Positions 16,301 to 54,409 of a stretch of DNA of 64,000 nucleotides are shown here, piece after piece; position 1 is the first letter of the stretch; each line of letters begins with the position of its first letter. Location: the NCBI GenBank assembly GCA_977862235.1, contig OZ374560.1, forward strand, positions 2,418,001 to 2,482,000. Reading direction: 5' to 3'. The stretch comes from Dudresnaya verticillata. Lineage: Eukaryota. The translations under genes and the position numbers were made by a program. The notes beneath the pieces are model-generated. The model was not told the DNA's origin. It made no database searches and saw only the letters and a list, made by a program, of their open reading frames with translations.

Positions 16301-16305
16301 AACTA

Positions 16306-20939: not shown

Positions 20940-21140
20940 TTACCCTAAACGAGCGTCGTCGATATTCGGTGGAAGGTCCGTTCGCTTTTGGCGGTGGTAC
21001 CGCACGATATGCGAACGGGGCAGATTCGACACCGGTTCCCACGTGTTCGCTGTGGGGGCGTACCCAAACCACTTCACGAAGTAGAGGATCTCCCCGTCCT
21101 CCGCGAACGCGTGCTTCTCGATCCGGTCGATGACATACTC
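20940..21140 (-). CDS. Chromodomain at the end of Gypsy-1 integrase
   Basis: EYVIDRIEKH..YFVKWFGYAPTANTWEPVSNL. Confidence 0.9.
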   Translation of the reverse strand, partial: EYVIDRIEKHAFAEDGEILYFVKWFGYAPTANTWEPVSNLPRSHIVRYHRQKRTDLPPNIDDARLG

Positions 21141-21954
21141 CCCTTCGCTGCCAGCGACTGGTTGTACTTTTCGCCTTGGGCGGGTCCTTCGGCTGCTTCG
21201 GTCCTCCGCCGTGGTCGTCCAACGGTCCTGGAAAGCGTACTCGACGCGAGGATCGCCGTGGGCGGGTAGCATCCCGTATAGCCGAACGTTCGCCTTCGGC
21301 GGGAGATGCGCTTGCGTCTGGCGTTTGCGGTGCCGGCATGGTCGAGGATTGTCCTTCGCTCCTTAGCGTAGCCTTGGTTACGTCGGCGGCGTCCTTAATC
21401 GGGTCAGCCGACGGCGTGGCCGGAGTATGCCTGGCGGCGTCGAGTCGGGTGCGGACGCTTTGCGGTTGATCGGCGTCTGAGACGGACTGCGATGACTCAC
21501 TACCGGTTCCGGCCGCGAACGGAGCCAACTCGGCCAGGTCGCGAACGGACGCCTGCGGCGAACGGTCACCACGCGTCTGTTGACCACTCCCATTTGGGAT
21601 TGGCGCTACAGCGACGTTCGTCTCGTCGTTGACGACCCCTTGGTTTGGCGGCGCCCCATTAGACGGCGGACCCACAGTCGGGGGTGTGTTGATTGCGACG
21701 TGACCCGGAGGGGTCGGCGCCCAAACCACGCGGTCCCTTGACAAACGTTCGCGTTCGTTACGTCCTTTTTCGACGGTAATCGTACCGTCTTCGACGCTGA
21801 TCACTCAGTAGGGCCCGTCCGCCACCGGCGCCAACTTGTGTTTGCGCTCCGCTTGATCCCTGGAGGTGCCTCTGGCGAAATATTCCTTGCGTACAAATAC
21901 AAAGTCTCCTGCGACAATTTTCTCGGCGCACTTCCGTAGTCGGGCGTCGACGTT

Positions 21955-25613: not shown

Positions 25614-25639
25614 CCCAGTGTCAGGAGTCGGTGCCCGGA

Positions 25640-27351
25640 TTAGTTTTTCGCCTCCGGCGGTGGTTGCGCTATGTAGCGGTTTAGCATCGTCGGGTGGCGT
25701 TCGGCTGCACGCGGCGCAAGTCCCGCCCCTGGCGATGATGAACGCGCGGCGCGACGGGCTGCTTCCTTCGTGGCTTGTTCCTTACAACGGTGGTACGCAT
25801 CAGCGGGTACTCCGTTCCTTTCAACCTCCATCAGGCCCTCGTAGTTGGCGACGACCTTCATGAAGTCACTCATTCGCAAGAAGCACTCCGGCGCGATGTG
25901 ACCGCGTGCATAGCACTGATGGCAAATAATTTGTCGCCGTACGTCTTGACGAGGGGGCCCTCGGTCCTGCCATCCGGGTCTTGCACGATGAACATGCGGG
26001 GCATATTCTGAATATGGTACGCGCGGCGCGGGTACATTCGAGCGCCCAAAGGCGAGAGCGGGATCCATTTCTTCTTCGTCTTCGACGTAACTGTCTGTCG
26101 GTAATGCTGACGTTGGTATCGAGAGCTGCTCGTCGGCTAGATACAAGTCGCCATCGGCGTGTGTTCTGACGTCATCGTTGCGGTGGCTAACGTCTCGGAA
26201 TTTGACGGATGACTCCGCCAGCATGGCGCGTGCCGCCGGCTTTGGACTCTTCGTCGGTTGACGGTTGACTGCGACGGCGGGTCGTGCTTTGCGGGCGAGT
26301 TGTGTCGGCACCAGTATATCCTGGCGACCCGCAGTCTGTCCGGCCCTGCCGTGTCGCGCGCGATGCGCGTCGCCCTCGTCCTGTGCGAAGTGCACCAATC
26401 GTTCGAACGATAACTCCGCCCTTGGCGTCTCTTCGCGGAAGCGGGTAACCAGCGATCGTATCGATGGATCAAGTCCGTCGATGAATAGGGTCATCTTCTC
26501 CCAGTCAGGGTACACGTTGCCGCAACGGATGCACGCTCCAGCGAGCCGCATGCCATAGGCAGTTTCATCTTCAGACCGCTTCTGTGCTGTTGAGCGTAAC
26601 GCCAGTACGGCGGATCGAATCGCCGAAGGCGTCGCATACGTACGGAGGAGGTACTGTACCGCCTCCGGGTATGAAGAGACCCCGCCTTGATGGCGTGTTG
26701 ACGTCGACTTGACGGACCGGAACTGCGTCAACGTCGTACCCCGTAGGAAGTATGGCAGCGCTATGAACGCTTGAGCTTCGCTCATTTCTAGCGTATCGGC
26801 CTCATCCGCGAAACGCGTAAGGAACTCAAGGGTCAGGACCGGGTCGTCGCCCGTGAAGGCGGCGTCCTTCATCGTCAACTCTAGATGTTTGATGTGGTCT
26901 TTGACCTTCCCGGTTTCACGTCCGGAACGCTTTTGCCCGACGTTCGTCAGACGGTAAGTACGATACGACAAGAGTCGATCGAATAAGGGGTTGGTTGTTG
27001 TTGTTCCTCGGCAAGGCCGGCTTGTGTTCCGTCTACGACGCCTTGTTGCTCCGCCTGGACGGTGTCGGCGGAGTCAACGTAAGTGTGGTAGGTACGGAGG
27101 GCGGAGCCTTCCGGGACTGAAGTACGAACGACGATCGGATTCGGCGGGGGAGCAGGTTGTCCCCTGTTCAGCGAAGCGTGTGACACGTCATGGTCCGGCG
27201 GTGCCGTAAAGGCTGAGGCAATCTCCGGACTGACGTGACGACCAGATCGTGTCGTCATGGGTTGGGCCGGTCCCGACGGCGGCATAGTGCCGGGCGTCGA
27301 AGACGGGCGCCGGGAGGATCCACGCGATAGCGGTGGTCGCGGTGGACCCAT
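25640..27351 (-). CDS. gag: Gypsy-1 gag (frameshift near 26960)
   Basis: CHQCYARGHIAPEC knuckle and a capsid-like region similar to Gypsy-2 gag (YRTYRL / YRTHRL). Confidence 0.85.
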
Positions 27352-27456
27352 GATTGTTTCAAAGAGGTAGGCGAACGTCGTGAACGATGGGCAGAACGTC
27401 AGGGTGACGGTTAAGCGATCGTCTCACAGACGTTAAAGTTCGTAGATACGTAGCAG

Positions 27457-27475
27457 CTTCTAGGTCGGGAGACCA
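27457..27475 (-). promoter_or_regulatory. Gypsy-1 primer-binding site
   Basis: TGGTCTCCCGACCTAGAAG, 2 nt downstream of the 5' LTR. Confidence 0.85.
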
Positions 27476-27477
27476 GT

Positions 27478-28312
27478 TGTCGTGCAAACGTCGTATCCAA
27501 GACGAAGAACGCCTCCGGGCCGTTCGGGAGCCCGGTGGGTAGCCGCTAGTAGCGAACGGGGTAGAGCGGGTAGAACACGCCTAGGGCGGACTGTAAACAC
27601 CCAGGGCGAGCGGACGAAGGGGCAAAGAAACCCAAAAGGAAACACGTTAACAACGAGTTGAAACGTGGAAACACGGATGGGTAGACGCTTATGCCTTCGA
27701 GCAGCGGTAGGGTGCGCGCTGACGCGAAGGGGAAGTCCAGACTCAAACCGGCTTGCCGGGGCTTTACTGTTACGTCCTGGACGAGGTACTAAGTAGTACT
27801 ATAGCGCCGCAGTACGGCGGCTGCATGACGTAGTGCGCGGGGTCTCGGGACGCGTGTCGCGTGGAGGTGCGTCTGACACGTCCCGGGATCATGCAGCCGC
27901 TGTGCGCGGGCGCGTATGTCTCACGGAGGCGTACCCGCACTCTGCTGTAAGCGATCCGGATTCGGATCGTGATTGACACGTATTACAGGCGCCTTCCCTT
28001 ACAGAGGATCCCGATGTCGGATCCGGATGTCGGATCCGGATTCGATCGGGATCCGGGCCAATCTGACAGTCGACTCCCTTACACCTCGTTGATCCCGATG
28101 CATCATCCGGATCCGCTCTGCAGCGTTGCGCCGTACAGTGCGTCGGGCGTGCGCTGCGCTGGGTGGCGGTGCCCGCGCGTCCGTGGGCCAATCGTCGATG
28201 ACGTGTTCGCGCCAACGGCGAATGAGCCGTTTCAGAGGCGACCGTCCGTCGGTCGACGAGGTTATCAGCGCCCGTGGCGAGGAAATAAAAGCCCGGTCCC
28301 CCGTGCGCCACA
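27478..28312 (-). repeat. Gypsy-1 5' LTR
   Basis: TG...CA, followed by the PBS on the minus strand. Confidence 0.97.
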
Positions 28313-28317
28313 AACTA

Positions 28318-29600
28318 TCGCATCGCGCACTGCTCTCAGCCCTTCTATCATTGAGCCCTTATCTTTTGCCAAATCGTACATAGAGAGGGACTCTAGGTAT
28401 TCCAACGTGGCCTCTTGGACTTCCTGGCCATGATAAGTCCTCATAATGAATTGGTTCACTTCTTCACACGACTTGAAGTAATGTGGGTCTGACTGTACCT
28501 TTCTCTTGTAATCTGTCCTGGCCTGACCGGCTAGGATGTTCTCGATGTTGGTGAATGCGGCACGTTCAGGTACTCCCCATTGAAATACGTTCATGTAAGT
28601 ACAGTACGTGTCCTCCCAGTTCTCTCCGTCGTCGCCGCCAAACTTGTCTGATCTGTCGTTAAACCTTGTTGCTAGCTTGCTAAGAATTGCAACTGCATGC
28701 GTTGAAATACCTCTTTGGCCACCTTGTCCACCTTGGTGAGTGAGTGCCGGTTGGTTGTTTTTGTTATTCGTTCTGGGAAAAGCGTGATGCGACGCTTCGT
28801 TACGGTTACCATAGAGAGCCTGATTGTTACAACTATGCAGAGGAACGAATGGATCAGTAGTGGGGACGTGGCCCACTGGTCCAGTTTGTCCTTGGCGATA
28901 CGGTGAAAACCTGGAAGAAGCCGGTACAAACCTAGAAGTTGCAGTTGGATTACAATATTCCTCCTCTGGGCGATCAAGTGCACGCCTAGAGGCAGGTTTG
29001 CTGACTTGAGGTTGGCTAGTTAGCGTGGGAGAGTCATCCAAATTTCCTACTTCTAGTCCGTTAAGACTGCGTTCGCTACCGCGAATACTGCCCTGCGATG
29101 AACCCAACCTCCTCGATAACAATACTTTTTTTCCTTGTTCGATGACCTCGCGCGCGAGGTCTGTGGTATCTTGTTGAGACTGGGTGTCCGAGTAGAACGC
29201 AGCAAGGTCATGCTTGATTTGTAGGCCCCGGTGTTTTTCTATTCCACCTCCAAGTTCATGAATGAAGTCTCTTATAGATTTTTACATGACTGGCTCTGAA
29301 TACCCGTTCAATGCTTCGGTCGAGAAAAGCGTCTCTGGCGGCATCAGTTCCGAAAAATAGTCTCGAAGATTCTGTCCCCTTAGACGTTTTTCTAAGACCT
29401 CTCTCATCCAGTTTGCGATATACTTTTGCTTCTCACAGTTTTCATCCGGCTCCCAGCTGACTATTGCATCTTGTCCTGGCCTATTTACGCTTTGCGGTCC
29501 AGGGACCGATAAAGAATCTCTATCAGAACTACCATCATCCATCGGAGCGGGGCTTTGATCGTGTGACAACAAACCGTCCGCATGGTCAGCCATACCAGAC
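28318..29600 (-). pseudogene. gag: Copia gag N-terminal region
   Basis: ORFs 29282-29677 and 28265-29122 lie between the 5' LTR and the Gypsy-1 insertion. KFGGDDGENWE capsid-like motif. Confidence 0.6.
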
Positions 29601-29647
29601 ATCTGTTCTGTCAACAGTCCATTAACATCAGCTGACGTATTCCGGAA

Positions 29648-30151
29648 TGTAGTCGGACTGAAACTGAACGGTAACAAAACCCAGGTGTCTTGATACAGTA
29701 ACTGAGATGGTGTTTAGCAAAGTAGAGAGAGTTAGAGAATTGAGATAGTTTTATTTGATTACCACGCGCTCAACCTCTTTGCCCTTTACCGTCTTCGTCT
29801 CTTGCGAAGAAGTACAGGAAGTATGTGAGGTAAAAACTAAATCGCGTGCCTCTGTGCGTCCGAAGATACTCGCAGTACCATCGTGCTTTAAGGTCTGCTA
29901 AGTCGCACTCTCCTCACTCCAACCATCCCGCTCTCGCTCCCTCACGAGAGCGTTATTGTTTTTTGTAAGAGACTGAGTGCCATGCATGACTTGTATCGCT
30001 GCACTTTGAATATTTTGTATCCAGCAGATACAAATCCCCTCCTCCCAGAAATGCCGACCCTTCAGAAAGTCCGCTCTTGAACTGCACTTTATCAAGTGCA
30101 TTTGTTTTTCAGCTTTTTCATATTAGAGAGACTTGTCTACGTTCGGCCACA
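29648..30151 (-). repeat. Copia 5' LTR (504 bp)
   Basis: TGTAGTCGGAC...TTCGGCCACA; matches the split LTR at 10083-12102. Confidence 0.92.
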
Positions 30152-32964: not shown

Positions 32965-34029
32965 TAATTTCTCGTCAACATCTGTGCAGGTGCAGAATCT
33001 ACAGCATCCTCTTCGTCGCCTTCACCGCTATCACTTGGTGTTGCTTAATCTTCATTAACATCTATTTCTTCAGCCGAAGTTTGAAACTCACATGCAAGAC
33101 AGCTACAAGTGATATTGGTTAAGCTGCGCAGCAAGCTTCCGAGATCTTTGTTTCCTGTTTCTTCCTTATCATATACGTCCCTATATTTCGTGGCTACATT
33201 CAGTAGTGCGAACCTTGCGCTCATGAACGGGACGAGGTTCCAACCTTGTAAGTATCTCGAGAAATATGTCGTCTTCTTGATGCGGTTGTTAAACGACTCA
33301 GCTGCACTAGAACGATGCCCATAGAGGTCTTTTTACATATCCGCATTGAATGCGCTACAGTAAGTGTGTGACTTGTAATGAAATCTATTAACTACAATCT
33401 GCGACAGGTGCAGAAGCCATGGTGTACGCAACAATGTCGAAGTCGAAAGATTACAACCGTTGTCGTAATAGATAACTCTCGGCGGTATTCGGAAGTGTGT
33501 TAGCATAGTTGACAACGCCATAGCGGTTGACTCAACCTTTGTCATCACAATGTACCCAATTATCTTGGGACGGTCGCACACACACATTACTACAAGGAGA
33601 CCCGGCGAATGGTATTCGCTTCTCATGTACTCTTTTCGACAGTGCTGCTTCTCCAGAGTGTCGAAAAGGATGCCAGGTCGAAACGATGCCCGTCCTGGGA
33701 AACAGATCCCAGTATCTCGGCTATTGTTCCGTGTGTTTGAAATCTCATGAGGTAGTACTCTGTCGCAGCTCATCGCATAAGCTTTGCTTTCAGCAGAGCA
33801 TGTCCTTGTGAGATCCCGAAAGAACTTGGAAACTTTTTTGATTTGCTGAAACACAACGTCACCAATAGCGGACGCGAGATATCTCTTCTGTACGCTATGG
33901 TGATCAGTCAACAGAAACCATTCAGTGCAGAAGCGATATAAGATAGGATTCACTCCTTGAACTGCAGCAGCCTTATCCCGAACCGTCACCAGGCAATTGC
34001 AGCTGCCATCACCGTCACAATCTTTTATG
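32965..34029 (-). pseudogene. KDZ (Kyakuja-Dileera-Zisupton/HMGXB3-like) transposase, C-terminal catalytic part
   Basis: C.K....HSPGL...CVC..IIGY..M...ES, IYYDNGC, VVNRFHYKSH..C, then past a premature TAA at 33333 SSAAESFNNRI...ALLN. Confidence 0.8.
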
Positions 34030-34034
34030 GCTAC

Positions 34035-34797
34035 TGTGGTGCAACGGCAAGGGGGCCACCGAAAGGAAGCAACTCGACGGGCCAACTGTACGATCGGCCC
34101 AACCAAACGAAGACACTTGGCCAATGAAGTCGTGCCGTCGGGGCGCGAACGGCGGTGAGCGCGCGGAAGTATGAAACGTGGCCACCGACTGTACACGTGG
34201 CTCACACGTGGCCACCTACGACACCGAAGCGCACCACGTGGCCTGCTGTACACGCATGATCTGATTTTGCGACCAGACACAAATCGAAATTGGATTTGGC
34301 CGCACAGTGAATCAAAGGGAAGACAGTGGAAAAATCAAGGGAAAATCTAACTCGCATGGCCAACCACTAACGCACAAGTACTTGGTTTAGTCTCGCAAGG
34401 GCCTTACATTGGCCCGAAGCCGGAACGCAAGTAGATATTATGGCCGACCGGAGTAACCTCGGCCACTAACTGTAGAATAGCTCTAGATTAGCTCAGATGG
34501 CCGATTTTGGGCCTATTTAGCTGGCCACACACTACGGCTAAGCCGAAAAAGGTATGAAGCCGTCCCGCCAGAGGTTGGGAGTAAAGTTAGCAACTGAACC
34601 CCCGACTGGGCCATTTTACGTCCTCATCACGGATACTGGCCACGACTTCGTCTGCGCGCTCCCTCTCTACCACGCTTGCTACCGGCGCGCAGGTCCGTTC
34701 TACGTTCGGCCAGTTTCTACGAAATCCGACAGGTCTTTGTGGTCTTCTTGGGGTCTCGTTTGGCTTCCGTACGCGGCGGTGCTCTAGAGATACTACA
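34035..34797 (+). repeat. Gypsy-2 5' LTR
   Basis: TG...CA; matches 46479-47241. Confidence 0.96.
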
Positions 34798-34798
34798 C

Positions 34799-34817
34799 TG
34801 GTCTCCCGACCTAGAAG
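34799..34817 (+). promoter_or_regulatory. Gypsy-2 primer-binding site
   Basis: TGGTCTCCCGACCTAGAAG, identical to the Gypsy-1 PBS. Confidence 0.85.
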
Positions 34818-35274
34818 ATCAGTTGTGATTTCGGCCGTATTTCTCCGTTAGAAGACTCGAGTAGCTGGCCGTAGTCGACGACGGCCAGTGTCTTCCTCGC
34901 TACTGTGGTGGCCAAACCCCGCAAGTTGCAGATTGCGGGTTAGTAACTACCTGGTTCCGCAATTTGATTGTCAGTCTACTTCAACCCATTTCAGTGGCCA
35001 CAGTCTAGGTCACAGGCCAGATACCCGTCGCTTGGTTCGTTCCCAGGTTGGCCACTTTGCACACTCGCTGGTTCGTTCCCAGCACAGGGAGCTTTGCACA
35101 CGGCAGTGTCCGGCCCTTGGTATAGGGACTATTAGCTCGGAATCGTCCGTTCCCACCCCTGTGTTTTGCACACGACAGTGTGGTTCCCAGGAAGGCCACT
35201 TTGCACACGTCGGCCACGGGGTGGCCACAAATCGCTAGAAGTATCTGGCCAATCAGTCTCCGACGTACTTCGTC

Positions 35275-37612
35275 ATGTCTTCTTCTTCTTCGCCGGCAGG
35301 CGGACAACTGCAGTCCTTACAAGGCTCGGCTCCGCCTCCCTCCACGTTGGGCGCTCCCATAGGCCCACCCCTGCTCCTGGCCTGTATCCACCGTTATTGG
35401 GGCCAACAACAGCTCCTCCGGTCCCGTTATCAACTTGCCAGTTCATTCCTCCGACGGTTGTACGAGCAGGGTCAGCTTCCACAGCAGGTGCCGTCCGTAA
35501 TGAGGTACCGCCACGGACAGCCCCACCGGTCTCACCGTGGCGCACGCCGCCGGCGGCCATAGCGCCGCCGATGACCCCGCTGGCCGCTCCTGCCAATCTT
35601 CGTCCACCTCCAGTTGATGATGATTCCCAGCCAGAACACGACGTTTGGTTGGGCCGGGAAGAGTTCTACCAGAATAAACGACGTACGGCTGAGTGGCAAC
35701 AAGAGGTGAAGAACCAGTTTGGCGAGATGCAAGTCAAGATGTCCACCACGGCTCTGATTAGGGACCAACAGCTTCGCCAGGAGATACACTCCGTCATCCT
35801 AGACGGTGCACTTACGGCCATAGCGGAACGTTATGATGAGCGTCTGGAAAAGGTCGAGAAGGCCGTTTTGTCTTCCGACGGGAAGGGAAAACTTCCCGCT
35901 CCTCCTGGCCAGACAAGGTCCGAGTCCGCTCGGATAACACCGGTCAACCTACCCGTCTTGGCACCGCAGGTGGGTGAACCGGTAGCAGCAGTGCAGAAGC
36001 AACTGGAAAAGTTGCAAGATGAGATAACGGCCTTGTCGCATCCTGTCAAGGCTCGGCAAAATATTCCTGAAGGAGGGGTACCCCCGCAAGAGGGCAACAC
36101 TCAGAACAGTGGTGCCGCCCCACGGACTGCTTTAGTTGGACCTTCGGGGCCAGTTGATGCAGGGGAACCTTCCATGGGATACACTGGCCAGTTGGATGAA
36201 ACAGGTCTTCCTGTAGCGATGATGGGGCCAATGGAACCAGGTCTAGAGCCTCTCAAGACCCTCCAAGAACCCTTCCGGCGGGTGGTGGATTACCGGACCC
36301 ACCGTCTGTTAGATACCCGGCCAACGATGACTATGGAGGACCTTCAGCGCTTGTCCCGGATGACTCGTCAAATCCGGAACTTGTTCCCGCAGATGAACCC
36401 ATTTGATGGCCGTCGTCCGATCGAGCTCCTGTCCTTCCTCAAGGAGTTCAAGGATGCCTGTGATGGGACAAACGTCCATGAAGGGGCCGCTTTGCGTCTT
36501 CTGGCCTTCTTTACGGCCGGTGATGCGAAGAGGTTCTATTCTGGCCGAAGTTCCCGTGGTATAAGGTCAGTACACTCCATCTTTCCGATGAGTGCATTTC
36601 AAAAATCAGCTGGCCACACTTAGTCCACGTTCTCATCAAGCGCTACTGCACCGAAGATGTTCTGGCCGCTGCATTCGACAAAGTGGCCGGAAGCAAACAG
36701 AAAGATACCGAGACAGAAGCGGAATTCGCTGAGCGGTTGGGGGATGCGGCGCTGTCGTGCGCCGATGTCTTCTCGGAGAACACCCTGATCAACCATTATG
36801 TGAGGGGTTTACCTTCGACCACTCGTTCGGCCGTAGCTGAGAAGCTTATGCAGATGCGGCCGGAGGAGAAGGACGTTTCGACGGTGCGCCGAATCGCCAT
36901 CGCTGAGGGGGAGACACACAGAGCCTACTTGGCTTCTGCACGTCCCAAAACAAGGTCGGCCAGTTCTCGAAGTGCGTTGGTCATCCCTACCCTTGCGGCC
37001 GAACCTGCTTGGCAGGCGGAGCCCGAGGATATAGCGGCCAACTATGATGATCCGTTTGACACCATACCGGTTATGGTCATTAACCCTGGCCAGAATGGTG
37101 CTCAGCAAACACCGACGATGATGTCGACCACGCCGTCACCGGCAGGATCGTTGTCCGGGGGTAATACCCCGGACCCACTCCGGAAACCTCCGATGTTAAC
37201 GTCGGATGAGCTGGCCAAAGTCGCTATTATGCTACGCAGTGACAAAACCAGTGCTCGTTGTTGGGGTTGTCGCGAATGGGGCCATGATTTGCACACTTGT
37301 GTGTACTTACCACTGGCCATCAGGAACTTGTCTGCCATACGTAACTTCCGCTTCCGAGATGAATTCGCTAGATGGCACCCCGAACAGTTTGCTGGCCGAG
37401 GTGGGCGAGGTTACCGCCCCGACCAAAGGAATGTCTCCTTTGGGGATGGAAGGGGACGCCCTCCCCCTCAGGGAATACTCCGACGGCCACAACAATCATC
37501 TTCGAATCGTGGGAATCTGCAGGCCACGTTAGTCACTACGCAAGAACATCCATTGGATGAGGTGGTGGCCGATGCGGAGTCCGATAATTCTTCGTTGGCA
37601 TCGGGAAACTAG
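35275..37612 (+). pseudogene. gag: Gypsy-2 gag (frameshift and in-frame stop)
   Basis: ORFs 35275-35562, 35166-36623 and 36683-37612. CWGCREWGHDLHTC knuckle. Ends G GGA AAC TAG. Confidence 0.85.
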
Positions 37613-37632
37613 CCGGGCCGAGATCTTCGGTC

Positions 37633-40600
37633 GTGATCCCGTTGCCCGTACACGTCCCAAAACCGGCTAGTCTCGTTTCAGTTAAGTTGTTTCCTTTTAG
37701 TCATCTCCATTTTTCTTCTTTGTTAGCCATTGCATGGCGTTTGGCAACGCCAATCCAGGTTTGGTCAACCCATGATTTGACCTACCACTGCCCATTTTCA
37801 TCTAACGGTCTGGTGTGGTCACCGCCCTGGAGGTTTGGCAATACTACATCATCATCCACCCCCACCACAAACGATGGGGGTTCGTTGCCAAAGAGTGGCC
37901 GTAAATCATCGAACGACGAACAGAAAGAAGAATCCCAACTGGCCAGTGTTTCATCACAAGGTATGGTCTGCATCCTGGGTGGGACCAACTATACCCTTTC
38001 GGGTTCATTTGGACTCACAATGTCCGCCTTGTTACCCGGGCCAATTGTCTTAGACACGTGCTCGGGTTGGAACATCATCCGCTTGGATCCGTTGCCTCCC
38101 AATTGGAAGGACAACGCACTTACGTTGACATCCCCACCTCTTCTGGGGCACGCCAACCAACGGCCGATTCATTTTAGAGGGGCCGTTTCCTTGGTCGTGC
38201 TCTTAGGCCGTCACTCATATCGAGTGCCGTTCCTTATCGCCGACTTTCGCTTTGCCGTATCCGTTTTGTTGGGTACGGCATTTCTGAACACGCACGTGGA
38301 TTCCATCCAGTGCCGTGGACAGACCGTGCACTTAGTGCGCGGTGACGTCCTTCCTTTGTTACTCGACAGCACTTCGATGGCTCTGGGGGCAGAGCCAACC
38401 GCTGGGAAGGGGGCCCCGCCTCCGGGTAATTCCAATTCGGCCAGTACGGAACGCAAGACCCCGCGACACTACGCGGCCACTGTACGCTTGACGAAAGGTC
38501 TGACCATACGGGCAGGTCAACAGGCCACCGTGTCTGTTCGCAGCGATGGCCGAGGGTTGTGTGTGTTGGAGCCCAAACATTCTTTGAGCTTCCGGCACCA
38601 TACGCGGATGGCCAATGGATTTGCAGAAGTTTGGCCGCAGAAACCATTCCAGGTAATGCTGGCCAACTGGGGAAGAAAGGATGTCTTACTGCCAAAGGGT
38701 ACCGTGGTCGGCTATGCTGTCCGCCACCCCTTGGCAATCCTGACACCACACGGACAGAGTTTGGAGAGTATGACCAGTGTACTTGGGCTTACTCCACTTG
38801 TGGATCAGGATAGTAGTCAAGTAGAAGTAGAAGAATCTGGCCAAGAAAGAGTTGAGCCTTCGGAACCAAAGGTACCCAGACAAGAGGCGCAAGAATGGCG
38901 GGATAATATCAAGCTTGATCATATTCCGGACAAGAAACAACGCGAAAAGATAATGGCCATTCTAGAGAAACACAGTGCTATGTGGGACGGTTCCCTGGTA
39001 CAGATCATGGCCACCGAACATCGGATAGACTTGGAAGATGGAACCCGGCCAATAAGAGCGATGCCCTGCCGACAGGGACCAACGTTACGCGCCATCGCAG
39101 AGGCCGACATTAGGAAGCAGTTGGAGGCCGGAGTGATAGAGCCATCGCACGGAGAATGGGCCTCGCCAATTGTGATGGTACCGAAAAAGGACGGCACCCT
39201 TCTTTTCTGCGTCGACTACCGCCGACTCAATGCGAAGACAGTTGGTGACGCGTATCCACTCCCGCGCATGGATGATTGTATAGACTCCCTTGGGGATGCG
39301 GCCGTGTTTTCAACCTTGGACTGCAACTCCGGATATTGACAAATGCCAGTGGCCGAGGAGGACAAGGATAAGACGGCCTTCACCTCTCACTTGGGAACAT
39401 TCAGGTACAATCGAATGCCATTTGGCTTGAAGAACGCACCAGCCACATTTCAGCGCGCGCTTGACATAGTTCTCTCTGGCGTCCGGTGGCAGATCTGCCT
39501 CATCTATCTGGACGATGTCATCGTGTTCTCCAAAAGTGTGGAGGATCATCTTGGCCATCTAGACGAGGTCCTAACCTTGTTGAAGGCGGCCGGAATCACG
39601 TTGAAGTTGAAGAAGTGTTCCTTCTTTCAGGCCAAAGTAGATTATCTGGGCCATTTAGTGACTCCCGGAAAACTAAGTATGACCATGCAGGGTACCAAAG
39701 CAATACAAGAGGCCGCGTTTCCAGGATCTCTTACGGAACTTCGGTCTTTCTTGGGAGCTTGCCATGTCTACGGAAGGTTTGTGGCCAAATACTCCACTAT
39801 CGCACGACCACTTACGCGCATGTTGTGCAAGGATGCCGAGCCGGACTTCGAACGGCCAACAGAGGAACAACGTCATAGCTTCGAGAAACTGAAGGCCGCT
39901 CTCGTCTCGCCACCTATTCTGGCCTTACCTAGATACAGCCGGCCATATGTGATTGAAACCGATGCCAGCGCATATCAGATTGGATGCGTCCTGCTCCAAG
40001 AACAAGAGGACGAGTCGTACCATCACGTGGGATATTGGTATCGTTCCCTGACGTCGGCCGAGAAAAATTATTCGGCCACTGAGCGCGAGTGTTTGTCTGT
40101 GGTATGGGCCATTACATCATTACGGCCATATGTTGAAGGTACCAAGTTCACAGTTCGTACGGACCATGATGCCCTCCGTTGGTTGATGTCGCTCACTGAT
40201 TCGTCTGGCCGTCTTACAAGATGGAGATTACGTCTGGCCGAGTTCGACTTTGTGATTGAGTATAAACCGGGGCGTAAGAACCAAGTCCCCGATGCCTTGT
40301 CCCGCTTGGTGGCCCCGCAAGAGAGCGGAGAAGCACGGCCAATAGAAGATACTGTACCTGTATTGGACGGTACCCCCTCTATTCTCACGACCACGCGGGT
40401 CCGGAGAAATCGAGAAGTTAATATGGCCGACAGGAGAGAACGAGACGATGGAGTCGACGCATGGGAACAGGAACATTTGATGGCCGATTATACGGACTAT
40501 GGACGAGCGGAAGTTTTCAGTCGTGCACAAATGGAAGGGAAGACAGCAGAGACTCTCCCAACATCAGTAACACAGGCTGAAATAATAGAAGGTCAGAAAA

Positions 40601-42026
40601 GCGATGACTTCTGCCAGACCATTCTTGCCACGCGAGCTGGGCTGGGACGACCCAAGAAACCTCTCTTCCTCGAAGGGGCTGATGGGGTCCTCTACAGACG
40701 TTGTCCGACAGATGGCCAGAAACAAATAGTGCTTCCAGCCTCGTTACATGGCCGCATTCTCCAGTTGTGTCACCATACCGTTCTGGCAGGTCACCCTGGC
40801 CAGAATCGAATGTATCAGACTCTTCGACGGACATACTATTGGCCGCACATGGCCGCTGATTGCCTAGCAACGGTTCGAAACTGTGGACATTGCGCGAAGA
40901 ACCGGATTCGTCGTCTCCGACATACATCGAAGTTACAGCTGTTCCCGGCCAGTCAACCATTAGAGAGTGTGGCCATGGATCTTCTCGGGCCTCTCCCCAT
41001 AACTAAGAAGGGGTTCGAGCACATACTAGTCATTACATGCCGCTTCTCGAAGCTCACTCAGGTGGTGCCGTTGACGAAAATAACCGCCTATAATGTGGCC
41101 ACGGCGTTTTGCGTTCACTGGATTTTCAAGTACGGTGCACCAAAGACAGTTATTACGGACAACGGTGGGCAGTTTGCGGCCAAGTTTTTCCAAGCGGTCT
41201 GCCGACAATTACAGGTGGCCAACATCTTCACAACGACATATCATCCGCAAACGAATGGCCAGGTGGAAAGGTACAATCGAACATTGGCCGCAATGCTGAG
41301 GAGCTACCTGAATGAACATCAGACTGACTGGGATGAGTACGCTGCGGCATTGACGTATGCTTATAATTGCCATATACATCGTTTGAATTGGTTCTCAGTC
41401 GGCCGCCGAGTCCATTCTTACTTGAAGCTACGTTAAACCGGCCAAAGCCAACAGGGACTGTGAAAGAAGCGTTCTTACGCCGACTATCAGAGGCCGTGGA
41501 TAAAGCTTCGGCCAGTTTAACTCGCACACAAGCGCGCTACAAGAAGGACTTTGACCGCTCAGTTAGAACGGGGAATAAAATGCTGGCCGCAGGGGGGTTT
41601 GTCTTCCTAGGCAACCCAGAAAAGTAGCCAAAGAAACTAGAGCATCATGACGAGGGGCCATACAAAACTAAAAGCAACGATGGCCGTACGTTCGTCATCG
41701 ACAGAGCTGGCCAACTGGAGCGTGTTAGTTCGGACCGAGTAGTAGCCGCGCCCAGGCCACAAGGGCAACCGATGGCTACGGAGACATTGGCCAGTGCCGC
41801 GTTGGGAAACCTTCCAGAAGGCGTCGCTGCGACGGCCGATGAATACGTCATTGACAAACTCACTGATATGCGCGAGGATTCAACTGGCCAGCGGTGGTTT
41901 CAGGTCAAGTGGTATGGGTATAATGGCCGAACGTGGGAACCCGAGGCTCTTCTGCCGGCCACGTGGGTATCCCGCTTCTTCGCGCGCTTGAAGCGCCGAG
42001 CTACGCCGGGCCAAAACAGTTCCTAA
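37633..42026 (+). pseudogene. pol: Gypsy-2 pol (PR-RT-RH-IN-chromodomain) with stops and frameshifts
   Basis: VLDTCSG, FCVDYRRLN, TGA at 39337 in place of W, YLDD, DASA, integrase core, and chromodomain EYVIDKL..VKWYGY..TWEPE (41840-42000). Confidence 0.95.
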
Positions 42027-42849
42027 GGTCAACATCGACATGGCCAGGGAAGTCAAGCGAGAGGAGTCAGAGTCTGGCCAAAAACTTGTGAAAACGGAGA
42101 TGCGGGGTGGTTCTGGACGGAGGAAGGAGATGCTGGGTGACAAAATACCCCGGCTGAAACCCCGTCACCAAAAACACGACGGCGGTGTTTAGGGTTAACC
42201 CAGAATAATGTAAGCTGGCCAATCACGTGAGAGAACGTTGCGGCCAGCAAATCTCCCGGTGTACGCCAAAATTCAGTGGGTGTAAATGGACGGTAGAAAC
42301 TGTCTCATCTTTTGCTGCCTTCTCCAAGTAACTCTAATTTCCACGCGTCGTGCTCCCAGGCAGGGGGGTTTTGCGCAGAGTGAGAGGTCAGGGGTAACAA
42401 CGATAACCCCTACCGACAACAAGAAGGAAATTGTCCAGAGAAGAAGACATGGCCAGATGAAGTGCTTGAAGTCGATGAGACAAAGACGAGCTGGCCGTTA
42501 CTTCTCCTTCGGCACCCGGAAGAAGCCTGTGCTCATGAGCATTGGCCAGAAGCAAGACCTACTGACCCGGACGAACAGAGGCCATACGGCCCCATTTGAC
42601 TAGTAACTGGCCACGATAACATGCAATATTTTTGGAGGTAACCAGTGCATTTTAACTCAAGACTGGCCGGACAGACTAAGTAACCCCCAAAGACAAGGGG
42701 GGCTGTCCAACATTAGACGCACTAACTTGGCCACCAACTTTTGATAACGTAAACACAAGACACAGGAAATCACAAGACTAATAATAACACATTGGCCAGC
42801 ATAACAGCACAAGACGAGCTGGCCAACTACTAATCCAACACCTTGACAA

Positions 42850-45800
42850 CTAACGACCATAAGGGCTTGGTGAGCGAGGAGAACCCGAAGCATAGGGCTC
42901 TCTGCTCCTTGACTGCGAAGGCGCATGAGGCGCTGTCGCGGGAACACGTGGGGCCGTCGCAGGAACGGTTGGCGGTGTCACAAAAGGCGAGGTGGCCGGC
43001 AGAGATAAGCTGCCAGGAACATGGCCAGGCTGAGCAACATTGGCCACAGGGGTCGGCGGAGCCGACACAATCGGACGAGTTGGCTCTCGTTGATAATCGG
43101 CCGGTCGAGACGGCGCACGTGGATGACTAGTGATATCTCCAGCGTGAGATGGCGTGGGGGTTGTGGCTGGTGCCACTGAAACCCCGGGATATTGCGGCAT
43201 AGCCGGCGCAGGCGTAGGCAAGGAAGACAGAGGAAACTGAGGCATCTGGCCAAAGACAGGGGGCGCATAAGCTGCGCGCAAACTGGCCAGTTGATGAAAT
43301 CCACGATTGCACTCCATTTCAAGTAAGGCCTGTTGATTATGCGTCTCGTCGCACCAGCGATCGCACTGCCTCTTCCACTCAAGACCCTGCTCGTTAGATC
43401 TGGCCAGTGACTCCTTTGTGGCCCGCAACTCGGCCTCGACCTGATCTTTCTGTCTTCTAACATTGGCCAGCCGCTCTTCACCCCGGCTGATCACCTCCTC
43501 CACTTCATCAACATGACGCCGTAGGCGGTTGAGTTCATCGGTCTGGCCACGCTTTGTGTCGCTGAGGCGGCCAAGGCTCTGGTTCAGCTGCCGCAAGATA
43601 TTAGCGAAAAACATTTGGTTAACATGGCCGCGCACAGAACGTTCGGCCACCACATGCGGATGAGGGTGCAAGAGGGGGGCCCGCACGATGGAAGCGTCGT
43701 TGGCCACTTCAACTCCAAAGCTACTGCCATGCCGAAAAGTCACTTGTTTGTTCCAGTCGAAACCGCAATAATTCTCATCATGGCCAGCCCTGCGTTGAAA
43801 CAAATGGTCCCGGTGCAGCACTGTGTCGACCAACGTCTCATAAAACGACACAACATCTGGCCAATACACATGATTGAACTGATGCTGATGCTCCTGGCTG
43901 ACGGGGAGGTAGGTAAGATCTTTCACCACCTCGACCCGTCGAGCAATGGCCTGAGAAGACATCCACCACATTCTATTCGACGCCTGTGCTTCGTAGTGAA
44001 AGAAGATGCTGGCCATTACATGAAGCTCAATAACAGCCGTCTCCTGGAAGCACTCAACCCAGGTGGGGTCGAGGGCATGACGACGATACTGGCCAACAAC
44101 ATAGTAAGCCAAAGGACTAAGCAAGCTGGCCTCGCCTCTCGATGGCCACTCCTTCCAAAGAAAAGCGGGAACGCTAGGGAAGAACTCAACAGGGGGCCAA
44201 AAACCTTCTTGGCCGCGAGTACTTCCATGGTAGACATAGCTACCACCCGTGCGATGAGCCAGCCAATCTCCCGGCGCTATGATGCGACGAAGATCTGTAC
44301 TGGCCATTTTTTCGTTTCGCACGGTCGTCTGTTCCCAGCGCTCTAGCATCCACGAGTGAGGGAAGGCTTAATACCAAGTGGAAGTGCAGGGATAGACGTT
44401 GGACTTGCCCTTGAATCAACCAAGCTCTGTGGACATACATTACGTCTTGCGCACACAACAGGAAGGCCCGGTCGCACTCGATTTCCGAAGGGATCCAATA
44501 GAGATGGCCATTTTCGTGCGACTCGCGATATTGGTGCCACGCCTCGCCCAGAGAACAGTGGCTTTCACGAATGCGAATCATGTCCAACTTGTCACTGTCG
44601 GCCACTAACTCGGTATAAGGTATATCTACGCGAGGTAACTTCGGCCAGATAGAAGTGCCTGGCAAACGTTCGTCCAAAACCAACTCGGGGCCATTTTGAT
44701 CTTCTAAGCCCGGTGGAATGTCGGCGCGGAAAGGCACAGCAGCACGAGTTTGCGAAGCTGGCTCGCGATCCGGATGCGTCGGGGCAGAAGGTCCAGTACT
44801 CGAGCTTGGGTTCTCCTGGCCAGTCTTGGTGATACCCACAGTTTTTTCGCGCGGTATAACTTCCTTCCCGCGAGGCTCTTCACTCGGGCCAGATGACTTG
44901 GGCTGCACACCTGCAGAAGGCGTAGAAGAAGACTGGCCAGTTTTAAGCTCATCGGCGTCGGGGAGCAAAGCCACAAATCGCCGCCGATCGCCGTCGGACA
45001 TAAGGTTGGCCGGCGGGATAGGTGTGGAAGCATCGACGTCAATAAATTCGTCGCGAGATATCGGGCCAACTTCCTTAGGGGGCAGCCGCTGCTTCTTGGC
45101 AGGAGGACCCTGAACAGCGGGCTTACCAATGTTTAACTTGGCCAGCTCACGCGCACGACTCGCAGCCGTCGGCATGAAAGGCGAAGGCGCCGAGCGCAGT
45201 CGTGGTGTAGATTTCCTCGAAGCACTTGGGGTTGCCGAACGTGACGACTTTCGCGGCACGGGGATATTGGCCAAAGCTTCTGGGGCCTTCTGCTCCAACT
45301 TATCTCCTTTCTTCTGCGCTGGCCCAATCTTCTCAGCGCCTCCAGGTACCTCTTCCTTGCTGGCCAGTGGTTCTTCTCGAGCGGGCACAAATACCATGGC
45401 CGAATCAGAAGCCTTGGGTTGAGCCGAAGCTACTTCTTCAGCTGCCGCAGTGGTAGCTTGAGTAACCAATGGACGATGGATGGCAATCACAGCCTTCTCA
45501 ATAGCGCTGGCCAACGGCGGTGGAGTAGGATTAATGGCCGTTGGCACAGAAGTGCTTGCGGCCGGCGTCAACTTCTTCGCCTCGAGGCGCTTCACTTCGG
45601 CCTGCACCAACCCTTTCTCAGGCGCTCCTGCTATCTTCTGGCCAGTTTTTCTCGTCTCCTTCGCTAGCGGGCCGACGATAGGAGATGCAGTCGGCTTACC
45701 CTTTCCGAGTTGGCCTGTTGCAGCCGCTGCCTCCTCCGACGAGGATGATGCGACGATGGTCACGCTGCGCACCACCTTGGCCTTCTGCGCATCGGCAAGT

Positions 45801-46240
45801 TTCTTCTTCAGAATGGCCAGTTGCTGCTCCTCAGCTTCGCGCCTCTTCTGACTGGCCGCTATCTCCTGCATTAACTTGTCGGTGCCAACGTCGGGCGTAG
45901 CTTGCACCATGGCCGGGGTTGCAGAGGCAGCAACACTCTTCTTCTGGGCAGTTTTGAGGGGCTTCTCCACCGCGGCCGCCTTCGCAGCAATCAACGGATC
46001 GTTAGATGCACGACTTGGGGTCTTGGGTGCTGGGGCAGAAGACGCCCTGGGCGTCTTCATCGCACGCGGCCTCGAACTCTGGCCAGTCTTCTTCGTGGTC
46101 GCCTTCACTCTGGCCACAGCGACTTCTTTGTTGCTCGACGGCGGTGTGGATGATGAACTAGAAGAAACGGTCAGTCGTACAGTCTTCTTCTTGGCCGACG
46201 CGGTGCGGCGCGGACGCGCTTTCGCAGGGCCACCCGCCAT
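42850..46240 (-). CDS. Antisense extra ORF of Gypsy-2, unknown function (two overlapping frames)
   Basis: ORFs 44240-46240 (666 aa, Lys/Ala/Pro/Ser-rich) and 42850-44349 (499 aa: aromatic domain, coiled coil, Pro-rich tail). Probably one frameshifted gene. Confidence 0.7.
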
Positions 46241-46478
46241 CGAGAGCGAACTGGCCAGGTGCGCACGATGGAAACCGAAACGAAGGAAGACGCGCGCAAG
46301 TTGTCAAGAAGCGAGAACGCCCGCGCAATGTTTTGGCAAGTGTTGGTAAGAGGAAGCGTGGTGTGGGCAAGATGGTGATGGCCGAGTGCAGCGAGAGGGG
46401 TAGCGGCGCGGATCACGCGCGCTGATATGGCTAGATGAAACCCTCGCGGCCAGGAGTCCGCCCTTGCGAAGGGGGCTC

Positions 46479-47241
46479 TGTGGTGCAACGGCAAGGGGGC
46501 CACCGAAAGGAAGCAACTCGACGGGCCAACTGTACGATCGGCCCAACCAAACGAAGACACTTGGCCAATGAAGCCGTGCCGTCGGGGCGCGGACGGCGGT
46601 GAGCGCGCGGAAGTATGAAACGTGGCCACCGACTGTACACGTGGCTCACACGTGGCCACCTACGACACCGAAGCGCACCATGTGGCCCGCTGTACACGCA
46701 TGATCTGATTTTGCGACCAGACACAAATCGAAATTGGATTTGGCCGCACAGTGAATCAAAGGGAAGACAGTGGAAAAATCAAGGGAAAATCTAACTCGCA
46801 TGGCCAACCACTAACGCACAAGTACTTGGTTTAGTCTCGCAAGGGCCTTACATTGGCCCGAAGCCGGAACGCAAGTAGATATTATGGCCGACCGGAGTAA
46901 CCTCGGCCACCATCTGTAGAATAGCTCTAGATTAGCTCAGATGGCCGATTTTGGGCCTACTTAGCTGGCCACACACTACGGCTAAGCCGAAAAAGGTATG
47001 AAGCCGTCCCGCCAGAGGTTGGGAGTAAAGTTAGCAACTGAACCCCCGACTTGGCCATTTTACGTCCTCATCACGGATACTGGCCACGACTTCGTCTGCG
47101 CGCTCCCGCTTTACCACGCTTGCTGCCGGCGCGCAGGTCCGTTCTACGTTCGGCCAGTTTCTACGCAATCCGACAGGTCTTTGTGGTCTTCTTGGGGTCT
47201 CGTTTGGCTGCCGTACGCGGCGGTGCTCTAGAGATACTGCA
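46479..47241 (+). repeat. Gypsy-2 3' LTR
   Basis: TG...CA, preceded by a purine tract. Confidence 0.96.
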
Positions 47242-47246
47242 GCTAC

Positions 47247-50486: not shown

Positions 50487-53400
50487 CTACCCAATCTTTT
50501 TCATGTTGTGCAAGTCCCACGAGAACAACAAGCCGTTTAGGCCCTTGAGATTGGCAGGAGGGTCCTCTAGTCCCTTCAATATATACGGATACGAACTTAG
50601 CTCATACTCCGCCATGACCTTCAAACTGTACAGGACCACAAGATGCTCCCCTGGTTTGGCAGATTCTGACAGATCGTGGTCGTGCAAGCGTTCATTACAG
50701 TTCCCTCCTGGAGTCTTTTCAGGATGCAACACGGCCTCCCCCACTTCCTTATCATCTGCAAGAAGCGTGACTCTGTCTCCGGTCTTGGGCATTGCACAAG
50801 GTTCAGGTGTTTTCCTTCTCCTGCACCTTTCATTCAGCTCCACACTTCCTACAACTATGTCTTCACTCCTGCCGTGCTTCTCGATACTCTCTTCGCGGTC
50901 ATCCAATACGTGCTCGGACGGTGTCTTCAGATGGGACATTTCAGGTCCCTTCCTCGTTACGGAATGGTTTGTTGGTTGAGCAGAATCTGTTTTGACAACA
51001 CTACCTCTTGCTGCCTCACCGATACCATTCAGTTCGTCATGAGCACTTGATTCCAAACGTTTACGACCTGTCTTCATTTCATATGCTTCCGTGGCAAGCC
51101 TACGCAAACGTTCAGCCCCCAGCTTGAATTTTCGACCTGTGATTCGATTAGTGTACACCGACGATCTGTTCTGAGAGCTGCAATCCCAGTCGTCATGGTT
51201 CCGCTGTGCATATCCAGAACTGACCCGCCCTCCGGACAGAATGTTGTCATTATCTCCACAAGTACTTCGGGAGACTTCTCTTCGACCAGAACTGGGGACT
51301 TGGTGCCTGGGCGTAGCAACTTGTGTTTCGGTGTTGGTAGAGAGGACATGCACGCGAATTTCCGCTTTTCTGGGGAGGGGATGCAGTGATACTCGCTCCT
51401 AAGGTCGAACGAGAACCCTCCGCCATGCTGACCTGGGGCACGCGCCATGACGGCTATTTCCACACAGTTCTGGGGCATATCGCTCCCCCGATGTTCCTGC
51501 ATGGTCTTGGGGTCTTTGGAGAATACGAATGGGTATGCTGGGCACACGAATTGTGCCTTCTTCAGAGCATCGTGGAATATACTGAAGTTCAGGAATGACG
51601 TGAAAACAAACGACCACCCCCCTGCTACAAGTACGCGCCTCGAGAACTCAACTATCTTCTTAATGTCTTCCTCGCTGAGGTAATTATCGAATGACCTCCC
51701 CGACTTAGACTGCGATTTCGGTGTACCGTATGGTGGATCAGTGAGGATTAAATCGAATCGTTTGTCACCTTCCTTCCTTACGGTACTGTCGTAGCTCTGC
51801 CATGTCATGTGAAAGCATGTCAGTTTCATTTCCGCAAGATAATCTATTGGAACAGAAAGCGATCCGTCCTCCACCGGCACAGGCTTAGTACCCATGTTGA
51901 GGCGAACAGACTGCTTTGATGACACAGTTGATGCAGTGGGGTCTGTGGGACTCTTTTCCGGTACAGAAAGGTCTTTGGCTGCACATGCAGCTTTAGGGTC
52001 TGCGTTCTGGACGGGTGTCTGTCCAGATTCTGCTGGTTCGCGACCTTCTTCCCTTTTCGAATTGGTTGATGTTGCTAAGTCTAAAACCTCGTTGTCATTA
52101 GAGATTCCGGTAGCGTCCACCCGCGGTGACAATGTGCAGTCCAAATTCTGTTGACCGTCAGAATCTTTTGTTCCACATTCTTTGGAACCCGGGCGGGTCA
52201 TGACAGCATCATCACGTCTGCCTTCTGTCGAATCCATCACAGTTTGCAGATCTTTGTACTTCTGCAACTTCACTGGGGCCTCTTCCGTACAACACTCTCT
52301 GTACATCTCAACTATTGTTTTCAACAGTGTACGGTCATTACCTCGATTCCTGATGACCTCAACGTCCAGCTTCGTAGTGTGTAACAGGTTTTCTCTTAAT
52401 TTACTCATGCCTGACGGCCATTCTGTCCTCTCCCTCATCGCTTCAAACTTCCGAGTCTCGGAAAGGGCGGCTGAAGCTTTCAAGAATTGCTGTTGCGTGT
52501 GTTTGGCCGAAGCAGGTTTGAAATTGTGTGTCCTTGACACCTCTCGAAGCCTGTACAGAGTAGCTATTTGAACAGTAATGCCGTTGTCAGAGCTGCCTGC
52601 ATTCATAAAGGCCTTGGAAGACTTGATGGAACTGACGTGAATGAAGCGTCTGTATACTCTACAATCCAGATTCTGCATCGCGACATTTGAGTCTATGGCC
52701 TTTCCGGAAGCAGTCAACAGTTGCATAGTTGCTAGTTCAGGGACCTCCTCCTTCATTATCTTCTTAATTACATCGATAACGCGACGGTCAAGACGAAGAA
52801 CGGTTGCCGCTGTCTGTTTGATAGTGTTTTCCGATAGGTGACTGCATCAATCATATGCTTCGGCAACTGCCGTCGCAGTCGGAGTCTTCCCATTACTGGC
52901 TTCGAGACGGTCTGCCTCTTTCCTAAGACCGCATATCTGATCGTAAAACGTGGTCTCTACAAAAAAGCTGGAGTCGTGCTTTCTGTTCTGATGACGAGCC
53001 AGTTGCTTCAGAATCTGGATGTTGTGCCCCCCTTTAAGCACAGTGGCAGTCAAAGCAAACTCCTTCCATGTCTCCCGGTCTTCATCGATTAGCTCCATAA
53101 TGGCGATAAGTCGATGCATGCCATCAACAACTCCGAACCACTCCGACCGACTGAAGGCCTCTTCTTTCACCTGTTTCTCTGTGTACTCTGTCCCATCCGC
53201 ATTCCGTTTAGCTCGGAGAAACTCAAAAATGAAACTCCTGAAGGGACCTGTTAGGCGAGCCAGTATGGACGCATCAGAACCGGCAATGTACCCGTTGTTG
53301 CAGTTAGCGCTCCTCGTCCCACCACCCCTAAAAATCTTCTTGAGCCTCTCAACACCGGATCTCGAGATGTCCCTTATATCAGTCATCGGAACACAGGACC

Positions 53401-53518
53401 TGGGGTCTATTCGAATGTTGGTAGACCCCTCCATGACATCTCCAAACAGTGCCTGTGCCATATCCTCCTTCCTCAAGGGCTCACTTGACCCCCTGCTCCG
53501 CTTCTTGCGCTTCGACAT
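50487..53518 (-). pseudogene. NLS-ParB/Srx-HTH-beta-class N6A/N4C DNA methyltransferase-C-terminal domain fusion (~1010 aa; one TGA, one frameshift)
   Basis: MSKRKKRSR NLS and VVDGMHRLIA ParB motif. FDLILTDPPY (51728-51739) precedes EKSPE and VLDMHSGTMTTGIAA, the beta-class order. The TGA at 52847 is in frame with ORF 51074-52756. A 1-bp loss near 51130 links to FKLGAERL in ORF 50487-51353. Confidence 0.88.
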
Positions 53519-54409
53519 GGTGCGCGAGAGAAAGACTCGCTGTGCACGTGAAAACCGCTCTCCTTGAAAGAGTACGGAAAGGGTTACTGCATGTCTGATG
53601 AGTTGTCCAGATTCTGTTCAGAAAACCTTTCGCAAGAAGTTCTTTACGTCCCTGGCTCATGTTTGCAGGGTGCCGTTTTCGACTGACACCATACGGGTTT
53701 TCGACACACCGGACGGCGGGAGTACGACATGGATGTGCCGCAAATTCCGACATGGCACGGGAGGTCACGTGGATTGTTCACCGGGTGTGGGCAGTCTCCG
53801 TCAGAACTTATTCTTAGCACAGGCCGTACAGTTGGAATTGGTAGAATGCAGGTTTCACAAGACCTGCAGGGCGAGATGTAACAAAGTCAATTAGGGTATG
53901 CTGCTCGCTGTCCCAGCCGACTTGGCCGGGCTTTGAAGTTGAGGCCAGCCTGGCCAGGTGCTGATACTGCGAGTAAAATAGCATGCCACACACGGTGTCG
54001 GTGAGTACTGGCACACCGTTGCCAGCGGCGTGCCAGCGGGGGGGCGCGGCGGTCAATTTACGAGGAACAGGTTCTCGGGGGTGGGAGGTGTCAACACCTG
54101 TGGGTGCAATATCAGTATCAGGGAACAGGTGGGGCGAGAGCGCCGGGCCAAATAGCTGTTCTTTTGATGTGGCAAATTGCGCGCTGAAAAACCTGTATAG
54201 ATTTTCTGTCCAATGATATTGAATAAGCTTGTAAAAGGGTCTTTCCATTGGGCCGCCTTCAACACCTTTACAGCTTCTGAATGCGGCCAAGTCACATTGC
54301 TATGAGAACAGATATTGCGCTTCACGGCAACGCAGGAGCCCAAAGTGCAATATCAGTATTGGGGAACAGGTCCTGAGAGCCAGCAAACTCCACAATCTAT
54401 CTGGCCTCG

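Follow-up and report, generated by a model that had tools for sequence, protein, structure and literature searches.

How does a retrotransposon come to carry the same short palindrome along its whole length, in its genes as well as in its non-coding DNA? The question is raised by a 64,000-nucleotide stretch of Dudresnaya verticillata DNA (GenBank assembly GCA_977862235.1, contig OZ374560.1, positions 2,418,001–2,482,000 of the forward strand), called here the window, whose numbering is used throughout. The window is a nest of transposons. One of them, at positions 34035–47241, is a single retrotransposon with long terminal repeats (LTRs), a chromodomain Ty3/Gypsy element of ~13 kb, as assigned from its sequence and Pfam domains. 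It is filled with spaced copies of the sequence YGGCCR (Y, pyrimidine; R, purine). This field of sites is real, strong and so far unique; the mechanism behind it we infer. All figures given for the element come from one copy.

The element contains 236 GGCC, 162 of them YGGCCR, against 75.2 GGCC expected from base composition. The excess grows with motif length (GGCCA/TGGCC: 264 against 33.9 expected; TGGCCA: 76 against 3.8). The remaining 50,794 bases of the window hold 159 GGCC and 16 TGGCCA. A preceding sequence-only reading of the locus had counted by hand 14 GGCC in 41401–42000 and none in 51001–51600, both exactly, and had described an excess that runs through LTRs, untranslated regions (UTRs), gag, pol and an antisense open reading frame (ORF) and falls off in the flank. 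The distribution bears this out: every full kilobase of 34001–47000 has 12–24 GGCC against 0–9 in the other 51 bins, and the density is 12–25 per kb in all nine sub-regions against 0 and 4 in the flanking kilobases. The two 763-bp LTRs (34035–34797 and 46479–47241, both on the plus strand and bounded by TG...CA) carry 19 GGCC each (24.9 per kb). The rest of the field is contributed by the 5′ UTR with a TGG tract resembling a primer-binding site (34798–35573, delimited by the inferred start of gag; 16 GGCC, 20.6 per kb), by gag (35574–37612, plus strand; 31 GGCC, 15.2 per kb) and pol (37588–42026, plus strand; 73 GGCC, 16.5 per kb), by the non-coding spacer between pol and the antisense gene (42027–42849; 14 GGCC, 17.0 per kb), by the downstream and upstream pieces of that gene (42850–44367 and 44240–46303, minus strand; 27 and 34 GGCC, with densities of 18.6 and 17.6 per kb for the two pieces) and by the 241 bases preceding the 3′ LTR (12.4 per kb). 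The edge of the field is sharp: the last site on the left is at 32685 and the first one inside the element at 34054. The mean gap between sites is 57 bp.

Codon usage does not account for this excess. The coding segments tested include 158 of the 236 sites, against 82.9 ± 5.7 after synonymous shuffles (maximum of 100 in 500) and 67.4 ± 7.0 after codon-order shuffles, so that the codon-preserving check proposed with the sequence-only reading gives an enrichment beyond codon bias. The same coding test applied to the neighbouring Gypsy element of the window yields 29 GGCC with 40 expected. The alanine codon GCC is used in 91 of 137 cases when preceded by G and in 34 of 168 otherwise; the dependence on the preceding G makes the effect one of context and not of codon bias.

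The preferred motif is longer than four bases. Four-fold degenerate sites favour the base needed for a GGCC, with odds ratios of 8.9, 2.9, 7.3 and 7.8 (positions 1–4), and the flanking T and A are also favoured (11.6 and 6.5); the six motif positions are favoured 3- to 21-fold. The fraction of opportunities filled declines from TGGCCA (61/67) over CGGCCA (71/87), CGGCCG (22/32), GGGCCA (17/27), AGGCCA (11/25) and CGGCCC (8/34) to AGGCCT (1/7). The two flanks act independently and in balance between the strands, T preceding 131 and A following 133 of the 236 GGCC. The motif is thus a symmetric graded profile, YGGCCR, with TGGCCA preferred over CGGCCA and CGGCCG: the GGCC excess first noticed stands, while the bare 4-mer gives way to a graded 6-mer. 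A DNA-modification target was also suggested then; one at a single base is disfavoured by the preference at inner, outer and flanking positions alike. There are no tandem repeats within the element, which means that the sites arose by substitution. All 19 LTR sites are common to both LTRs, and the field is therefore older than this insertion. The 14 differences between the LTRs (98.2% identity) spare GGCC, a weak point since only ~1 would be expected to fall there. At the protein level, Gly-Gln is found 27 times against 9 and Trp-Pro 8 times against 4 in the whole element. GGCC-permitting dipeptides, a proxy for the motif in relatives known only as proteins, number 116 against 73.6 expected, but the proxy is confounded, as the relatives P0021 and P0043 score equally high and conserved pol dipeptides contribute. 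P0021 is the closest protein relative over RNase H (79%); with 32 such dipeptides against 17.7 it could be a sister element that shares the motif.

The sites also keep a distance from each other. Their gaps are more regular than random (coefficient of variation of 0.76 against 0.93), and site pairs are missing at short range: one at 4–9 bp for 22.7 expected and nine at 10–15 bp for 22.8, while at 16–18 bp the 12 pairs match the expected 11.4. In the whole element 10 gaps of 15 bp or less are found against 37.9 ± 5.2 (minimum of 18 in 5000 for a null with a minimum spacing of six); in non-coding DNA alone they are 5 against 10.3 (p 0.024). Of the coding opportunities with a neighbouring site no more than 15 bp away, 8 of 35 are filled, approximately the background rate, and of those farther away 141 of 219 (p 5e-6). 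Coding DNA has 5 gaps of 15 bp or less, where an independent-site model run on the same proteins with matched site counts yields 24–26 (12 samples for each setting). The scarce filling near other sites and the mismatch with this model show that coding constraint is not the cause of the exclusion. The exclusion is not seen for control words counted in the element, and in nine GC-rich relatives GGCC is, on the contrary, clustered at short distances (37 against 18). The sites have no 10-bp helical or nucleosome periodicity in the element. Adding a second site within ~15 bp therefore yields no gain and has no clear cost, as a saturated protein footprint of ~15 bp would predict.

The comparison set consisted of algal retroelement contigs drawn from metagenomes and from contaminated bacterial bins. 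Three of these bins (G001, G002 and G003) are bacterial genomes with algal retrotransposon contigs (29, 6 and 4 pol matches), a case of eukaryotic contamination. The best-word z score against synonymous shuffles is 11.7 (4-mers) and 15.9 (5-mers) in the element and reaches at most 4.7 and 5.2 in 21 others; with a looser word test the values are 14.5 and 21.3 against at most 7.0 and 6.7, mostly for words containing CG. For GGCC the element has an odds ratio of 6.9, compared with 0.48–1.19 in 17 other elements, four of them from the window, which argues for a benefit private to the family. L003, the 22nd retroelement, is also negative (49/159 against 56; some of its pol fragments are possibly off-frame), so that a comparable motif field is absent from 22 of the 22 other retroelements sampled. 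Scans for a triple-TGGCCA pattern retrieved no retroelement among viral loci and no GGCC-rich sister in the three contaminated genome bins, and 257 further genomes added only distant elements. Five sampled relatives have a homologous antisense gene, namely the neighbouring Gypsy (17655–19673) and L003, L062, L063 and L065; in the closest contigs (L013–L019) the gene was not seen, but these may end before its position. In this sample a widespread antisense gene contrasts with a motif field confined to this family. Having the gene does not suffice for a field, as the five relatives lack the motif, and the idea that each family bears a barcode of its own finds no support among them. Other words are enriched locally in some contigs: GGATAT/ATATCC forms clusters in segments inserted relative to sister elements (L004 2318–3377, L005 2049–3108, L001 1753–1776), which are not element-wide, and GATTAA is found 14 times in one kilobase (L010 1001–2000) adjoining a Gypsy RT fragment.

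The antisense gene lies between pol and the 3′ LTR and is split over two overlapping frames. Its upstream piece encodes an N-terminus that is basic and of low complexity (the first two blocks of 100 residues have 22 and 23 K/R), together with the beginning of a folded domain, and its downstream piece the remainder of the domain, a predicted coiled coil, also found in L062 and L063, and a Pro-rich tail. With a profile built from the relatives' antisense genes, 282 clusters are recovered (E 0.001 or better), a few of which are coiled-coil noise. Conserved residues of this protein family of algal Gypsy elements (17655–19673, P0124–P0272) include a W...E-W motif and R-L-W-x-L-P. Among 57 members scanned against Pfam, 56 are without match and one has a sub-threshold match. 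With the family profile the element's gene, read with X at the frame break, reaches 13.6 bits, where 500 shuffles gave at best 4.6; the match falls into two segments that are collinear. A five-sequence profile gave no match to it, and a direct homologue search with an antisense piece found none in 7995 candidates and none in 3 genomes. It is probably a divergent member of the 282-cluster family, judging from the profile alignment. The single-sequence model of the antisense piece (pLDDT 49) is unusable outside the coiled coil. The domain of the neighbour's homologue is modelled with confidence (pLDDT 90.6, pTM 0.89, alignment of 117 sequences) and has no Foldseek match in PDB and viral libraries and a best Z of 2.0 among 48,161 chains, which does not by itself prove a new fold. 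An NDC10/Crypton-like DNA-binding domain was suggested by an Atlas feature (score 0.90, 160/256 common) but was not borne out with a homologue, by Pfam or by fold searches of the relative's model.

These observations can be assembled as follows. A Gypsy lineage has filled itself with YGGCCR palindromes by single-base changes, both at synonymous positions and in its non-coding DNA. Selection would probably have kept the sites as places where a DNA-binding protein of two-fold symmetry lands on double-stranded DNA; with a footprint of ~15 bp, this protein would coat the whole element. By analogy, the binder is predicted to be the element's own antisense-encoded protein, and its coat would shield the family from host silencing or license transcription, the density of sites giving specificity to a short motif. 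Selection for a symmetric reader of double-stranded DNA, of whatever origin, appears probable to us. Selection was previously put beside a motif-specific mutational process; it is favoured by the six-position preference, the 19 common LTR sites and the 15-bp exclusion, and the mutational branch of the claim is not. A coat made by the element's own antisense protein is a tentative proposal that falls short of probable; it is given this weight because the motif is private and the protein has a basic tail, a coiled coil and a strong divergence. It is rather doubtful that the full statement will hold, namely that an LTR retrotransposon recoded its entire genome, genes included, into evenly spaced sites for its own accessory protein, one of a large family with an undescribed fold, so that density marks "self" and shields the family from silencing, as a self-recognition code embedded in genes and made by point mutation instead of repeat expansion.

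Several points weigh against this proposal. The field is known from a single copy, and no second GGCC-rich copy was found in the metagenome contigs, viral loci and genome bins scanned. The five antisense-gene relatives carry no comparable motif (0/5). In a GC-rich genome a dispersed motif of six bases makes a poor address on its own. In pol, recruitment of sites at non-synonymous positions is not significant (11 of 48 against 102 of 600, p 0.32), and private residues have no significant excess at the sites. The family membership of this copy depends on a profile match that is weak though collinear, the modelled family domain matches no known DNA-binding fold, and DNA binding by the antisense protein is a guess by analogy. 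If the proposal is true, a family of antisense proteins with 282 or more clusters and no Pfam or solved-fold match would have its first function. Ahead of experiment, the synonymous sites yield a predicted footprint of ~15 bp and a predicted binding profile (YGGCCR, with T preferred to C). The element also bears on two questions that the available text of the VANC studies leaves open (PMC5735166, PMC10398659): how a short motif can address the full 13 kb of a transposon, and by what route silencing or anti-silencing gets into coding regions.

The alternative that survives best keeps the coat on the DNA and changes its maker: a captured host protein, or the protein or DNA-modifying enzyme of another transposon, acting for example as an activator, insulator or anti-silencing reader. 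We regard it as unlikely, if a serious candidate. The spacing and symmetry results fit it equally well, and it explains the absence of the motif in antisense-gene relatives. Red-algal transposons are described, in the portion available of 10.1101/2025.02.11.637652, as carrying ParB and methylase accessory genes, one of which is present in the window. A shared host factor, however, should draw other families, and the four other elements of the window (Gypsy, Copia-like, KDZ-like and methylase-bearing) have GGCC odds ratios of 0.52–1.14; the methylase's own element is not GGCC-rich. An adenine target is at odds with CGGCCG, which has no adenine and is yet favoured. The sequence context of methylation in red seaweeds is not given in the accessible part of an algal methylation review (PMC9861306).

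A context-dependent mutational process without selection, such as a modified base being shielded from decay, or a bias of reverse transcriptase or of repair, would explain why the pattern is uniform over coding DNA, non-coding DNA and both strands, and why the amino-acid cost in pol is not significant. The change from CGGCC to TGGCC is a CpG transition and could add to the T preference. One modified base cannot favour six positions, however, and the 15-bp exclusion does not arise from processes that act on each site independently. The sharing of all the LTR sites speaks in the same direction, as do the probable post-insertion changes at conserved pol residues, which overlap GGCC in 0 of 5, 0 of 7 and 1 of 9 cases (small numbers), and the undepleted CpG of the element (observed/expected 0.95). 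We consider this process improbable.

A function in RNA was also weighed, in which GGCC self-pairing compacts, dimerises or packages the genomic RNA, or Gag reads GGCC. Pairing would give strand symmetry as well, and the predicted folds pair 258 of 280 GGCC bases, 168 of them with another GGCC. The folding energy of the element is nevertheless ordinary: its z score is −1.2 against dinucleotide shuffles, like two controls (relative L016: −7.3), and +0.6 against synonymous shuffles, where four close relatives have −2.9 to −5.4. The strong scores of the relatives show that the test is able to detect RNA structure. The flanks of adjacent sites show no surplus complementarity (1.03 against 1.06), and the spacings that are missing are those in the hairpin range, which leaves an RNA function quite improbable. 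The four relatives (the pol of L013, L015, L016 and L019) have strong predicted RNA structure of their own, which the GGCC-rich element does not share. Finally, it is very unlikely that the field is an artefact of assembly or handling, or a peculiarity of this one copy, given LTRs that carry the same sites amid ordinary decay, an intact target duplication, a field edge coincident with the element edge and a preference graded like a natural binding profile, even if no independent copy was found and the best protein relatives are 60–67% identical.

In its structure the element is a Gypsy retrotransposon. It is flanked by an intact 5-bp target-site duplication, GCTAC (34030–34034 and 47242–47246). 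The pol region encodes a protease region followed by the domains in Gypsy order, namely RT (RVT_1), RNase H (RT_RNaseH), integrase (Integrase_H2C2, rve) and a C-terminal chromodomain (PF00385, E 7e-5; its 23.1 bits are slightly below the curated cut-off of 25.1), which is present in relatives too. Decay is mild: pol has one stop and one frame break, gag is read in two frames owing to a frameshift, and the total comes to several frame breaks and a single stop. Among named sequences pol is most similar to those of Chondrus crispus and Agarophyton chilense (41–46% identity), with amphibian matches lower in the ranking, and a quick tree nests a Chondrus protein among the closest relatives; a red-algal host is probable on this basis. 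The element was inserted into a reading frame with a weak KDZ match; GGCC does drop in this flank, and its earlier KDZ label comes down to one sub-threshold Pfam match (E 0.008).

The neighbouring Gypsy (16306–28312, minus strand; antisense gene at 17655–19673 on the plus strand) is GGCC-poor (odds ratio of 0.52), without short-range exclusion, and CpG-rich from end to end (observed/expected 1.37; GACG/CGTC 20–30 per kb), as are L013, L014 and L019 (1.23–1.33). It is inserted within Copia-like remains (11825–30151; RVT_2 and rve, both sub-threshold) bracketed by 278-bp direct repeats, and a third copy of its LTR is found at 60298–61132. The segment 48104–62793 is bounded by 889-bp inverted repeats (94.6%) with sub-terminal arrays of 117 bp rich in GAATGCG. 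It has a ParB-like frame (52847–53617, recognised by eye), then a stop and a DPPY N6/N4 methylase (51074–52846, E 5e-10), and a DUF7869 frame (59852–60376), resembling the accessory genes of red-algal transposons.

The element shares with chromoviruses (chromodomain Ty3/Gypsy elements) its LTRs, 5-bp target duplication, gag, RT-RNase H-integrase order and C-terminal chromodomain, but the sampled relatives are without an element-wide motif field. In the literature covered, which leaves subscription papers and supplements outside, an element-wide, coding-embedded and spaced motif was not found reported for an LTR retrotransposon. The red-algal Plavaka/Zisupton transposons with PAG2/PAG3 are similar in that, as far as the available part of the source goes (10.1101/2025.02.11.637652), they are proposed to bind and modify their own DNA via accessory proteins; they are DNA transposons, though, whose ParB, methylase and oxygenase domains lie beside local repeat arrays, and the antisense domain described here matches none of them. 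Retand elements, from the sections accessible of PMC11963269, are Gypsy elements in which a gene suspected of DNA binding lies antisense in the interval from pol to the 3′ LTR. They differ by the lack of a chromodomain, their occurrence in flowering plants and family-specific repeats that are local tandem arrays; their antisense ORFs (TRP28) are of unknown function, while the antisense domain here has no Pfam family. The closest working likeness is the VANDAL/VANC system of Arabidopsis, from which the sequence-only reading had drawn its analogy. According to the consulted portions of the VANC papers, VANC21 needs motif density and not single sites (PMC5735166), and the motifs are 9-mers, mainly non-coding, found in tandem repeats and arrayed in one orientation, with binding shown (PMC5735166, PMC10398659). 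The analogy holds for a short family-private motif at high density together with an accessory gene in the same transposon. It fails for the location and mode of spread of the sites: VANDAL is a Mutator-like DNA transposon, whereas in this LTR retrotransposon a palindromic 6-mer has spread by substitution through all coding regions, repeats are absent and the reader is a predicted one. The element is thus not a member of the VANDAL/VANC system but stands nearest to it in the way it appears to work.

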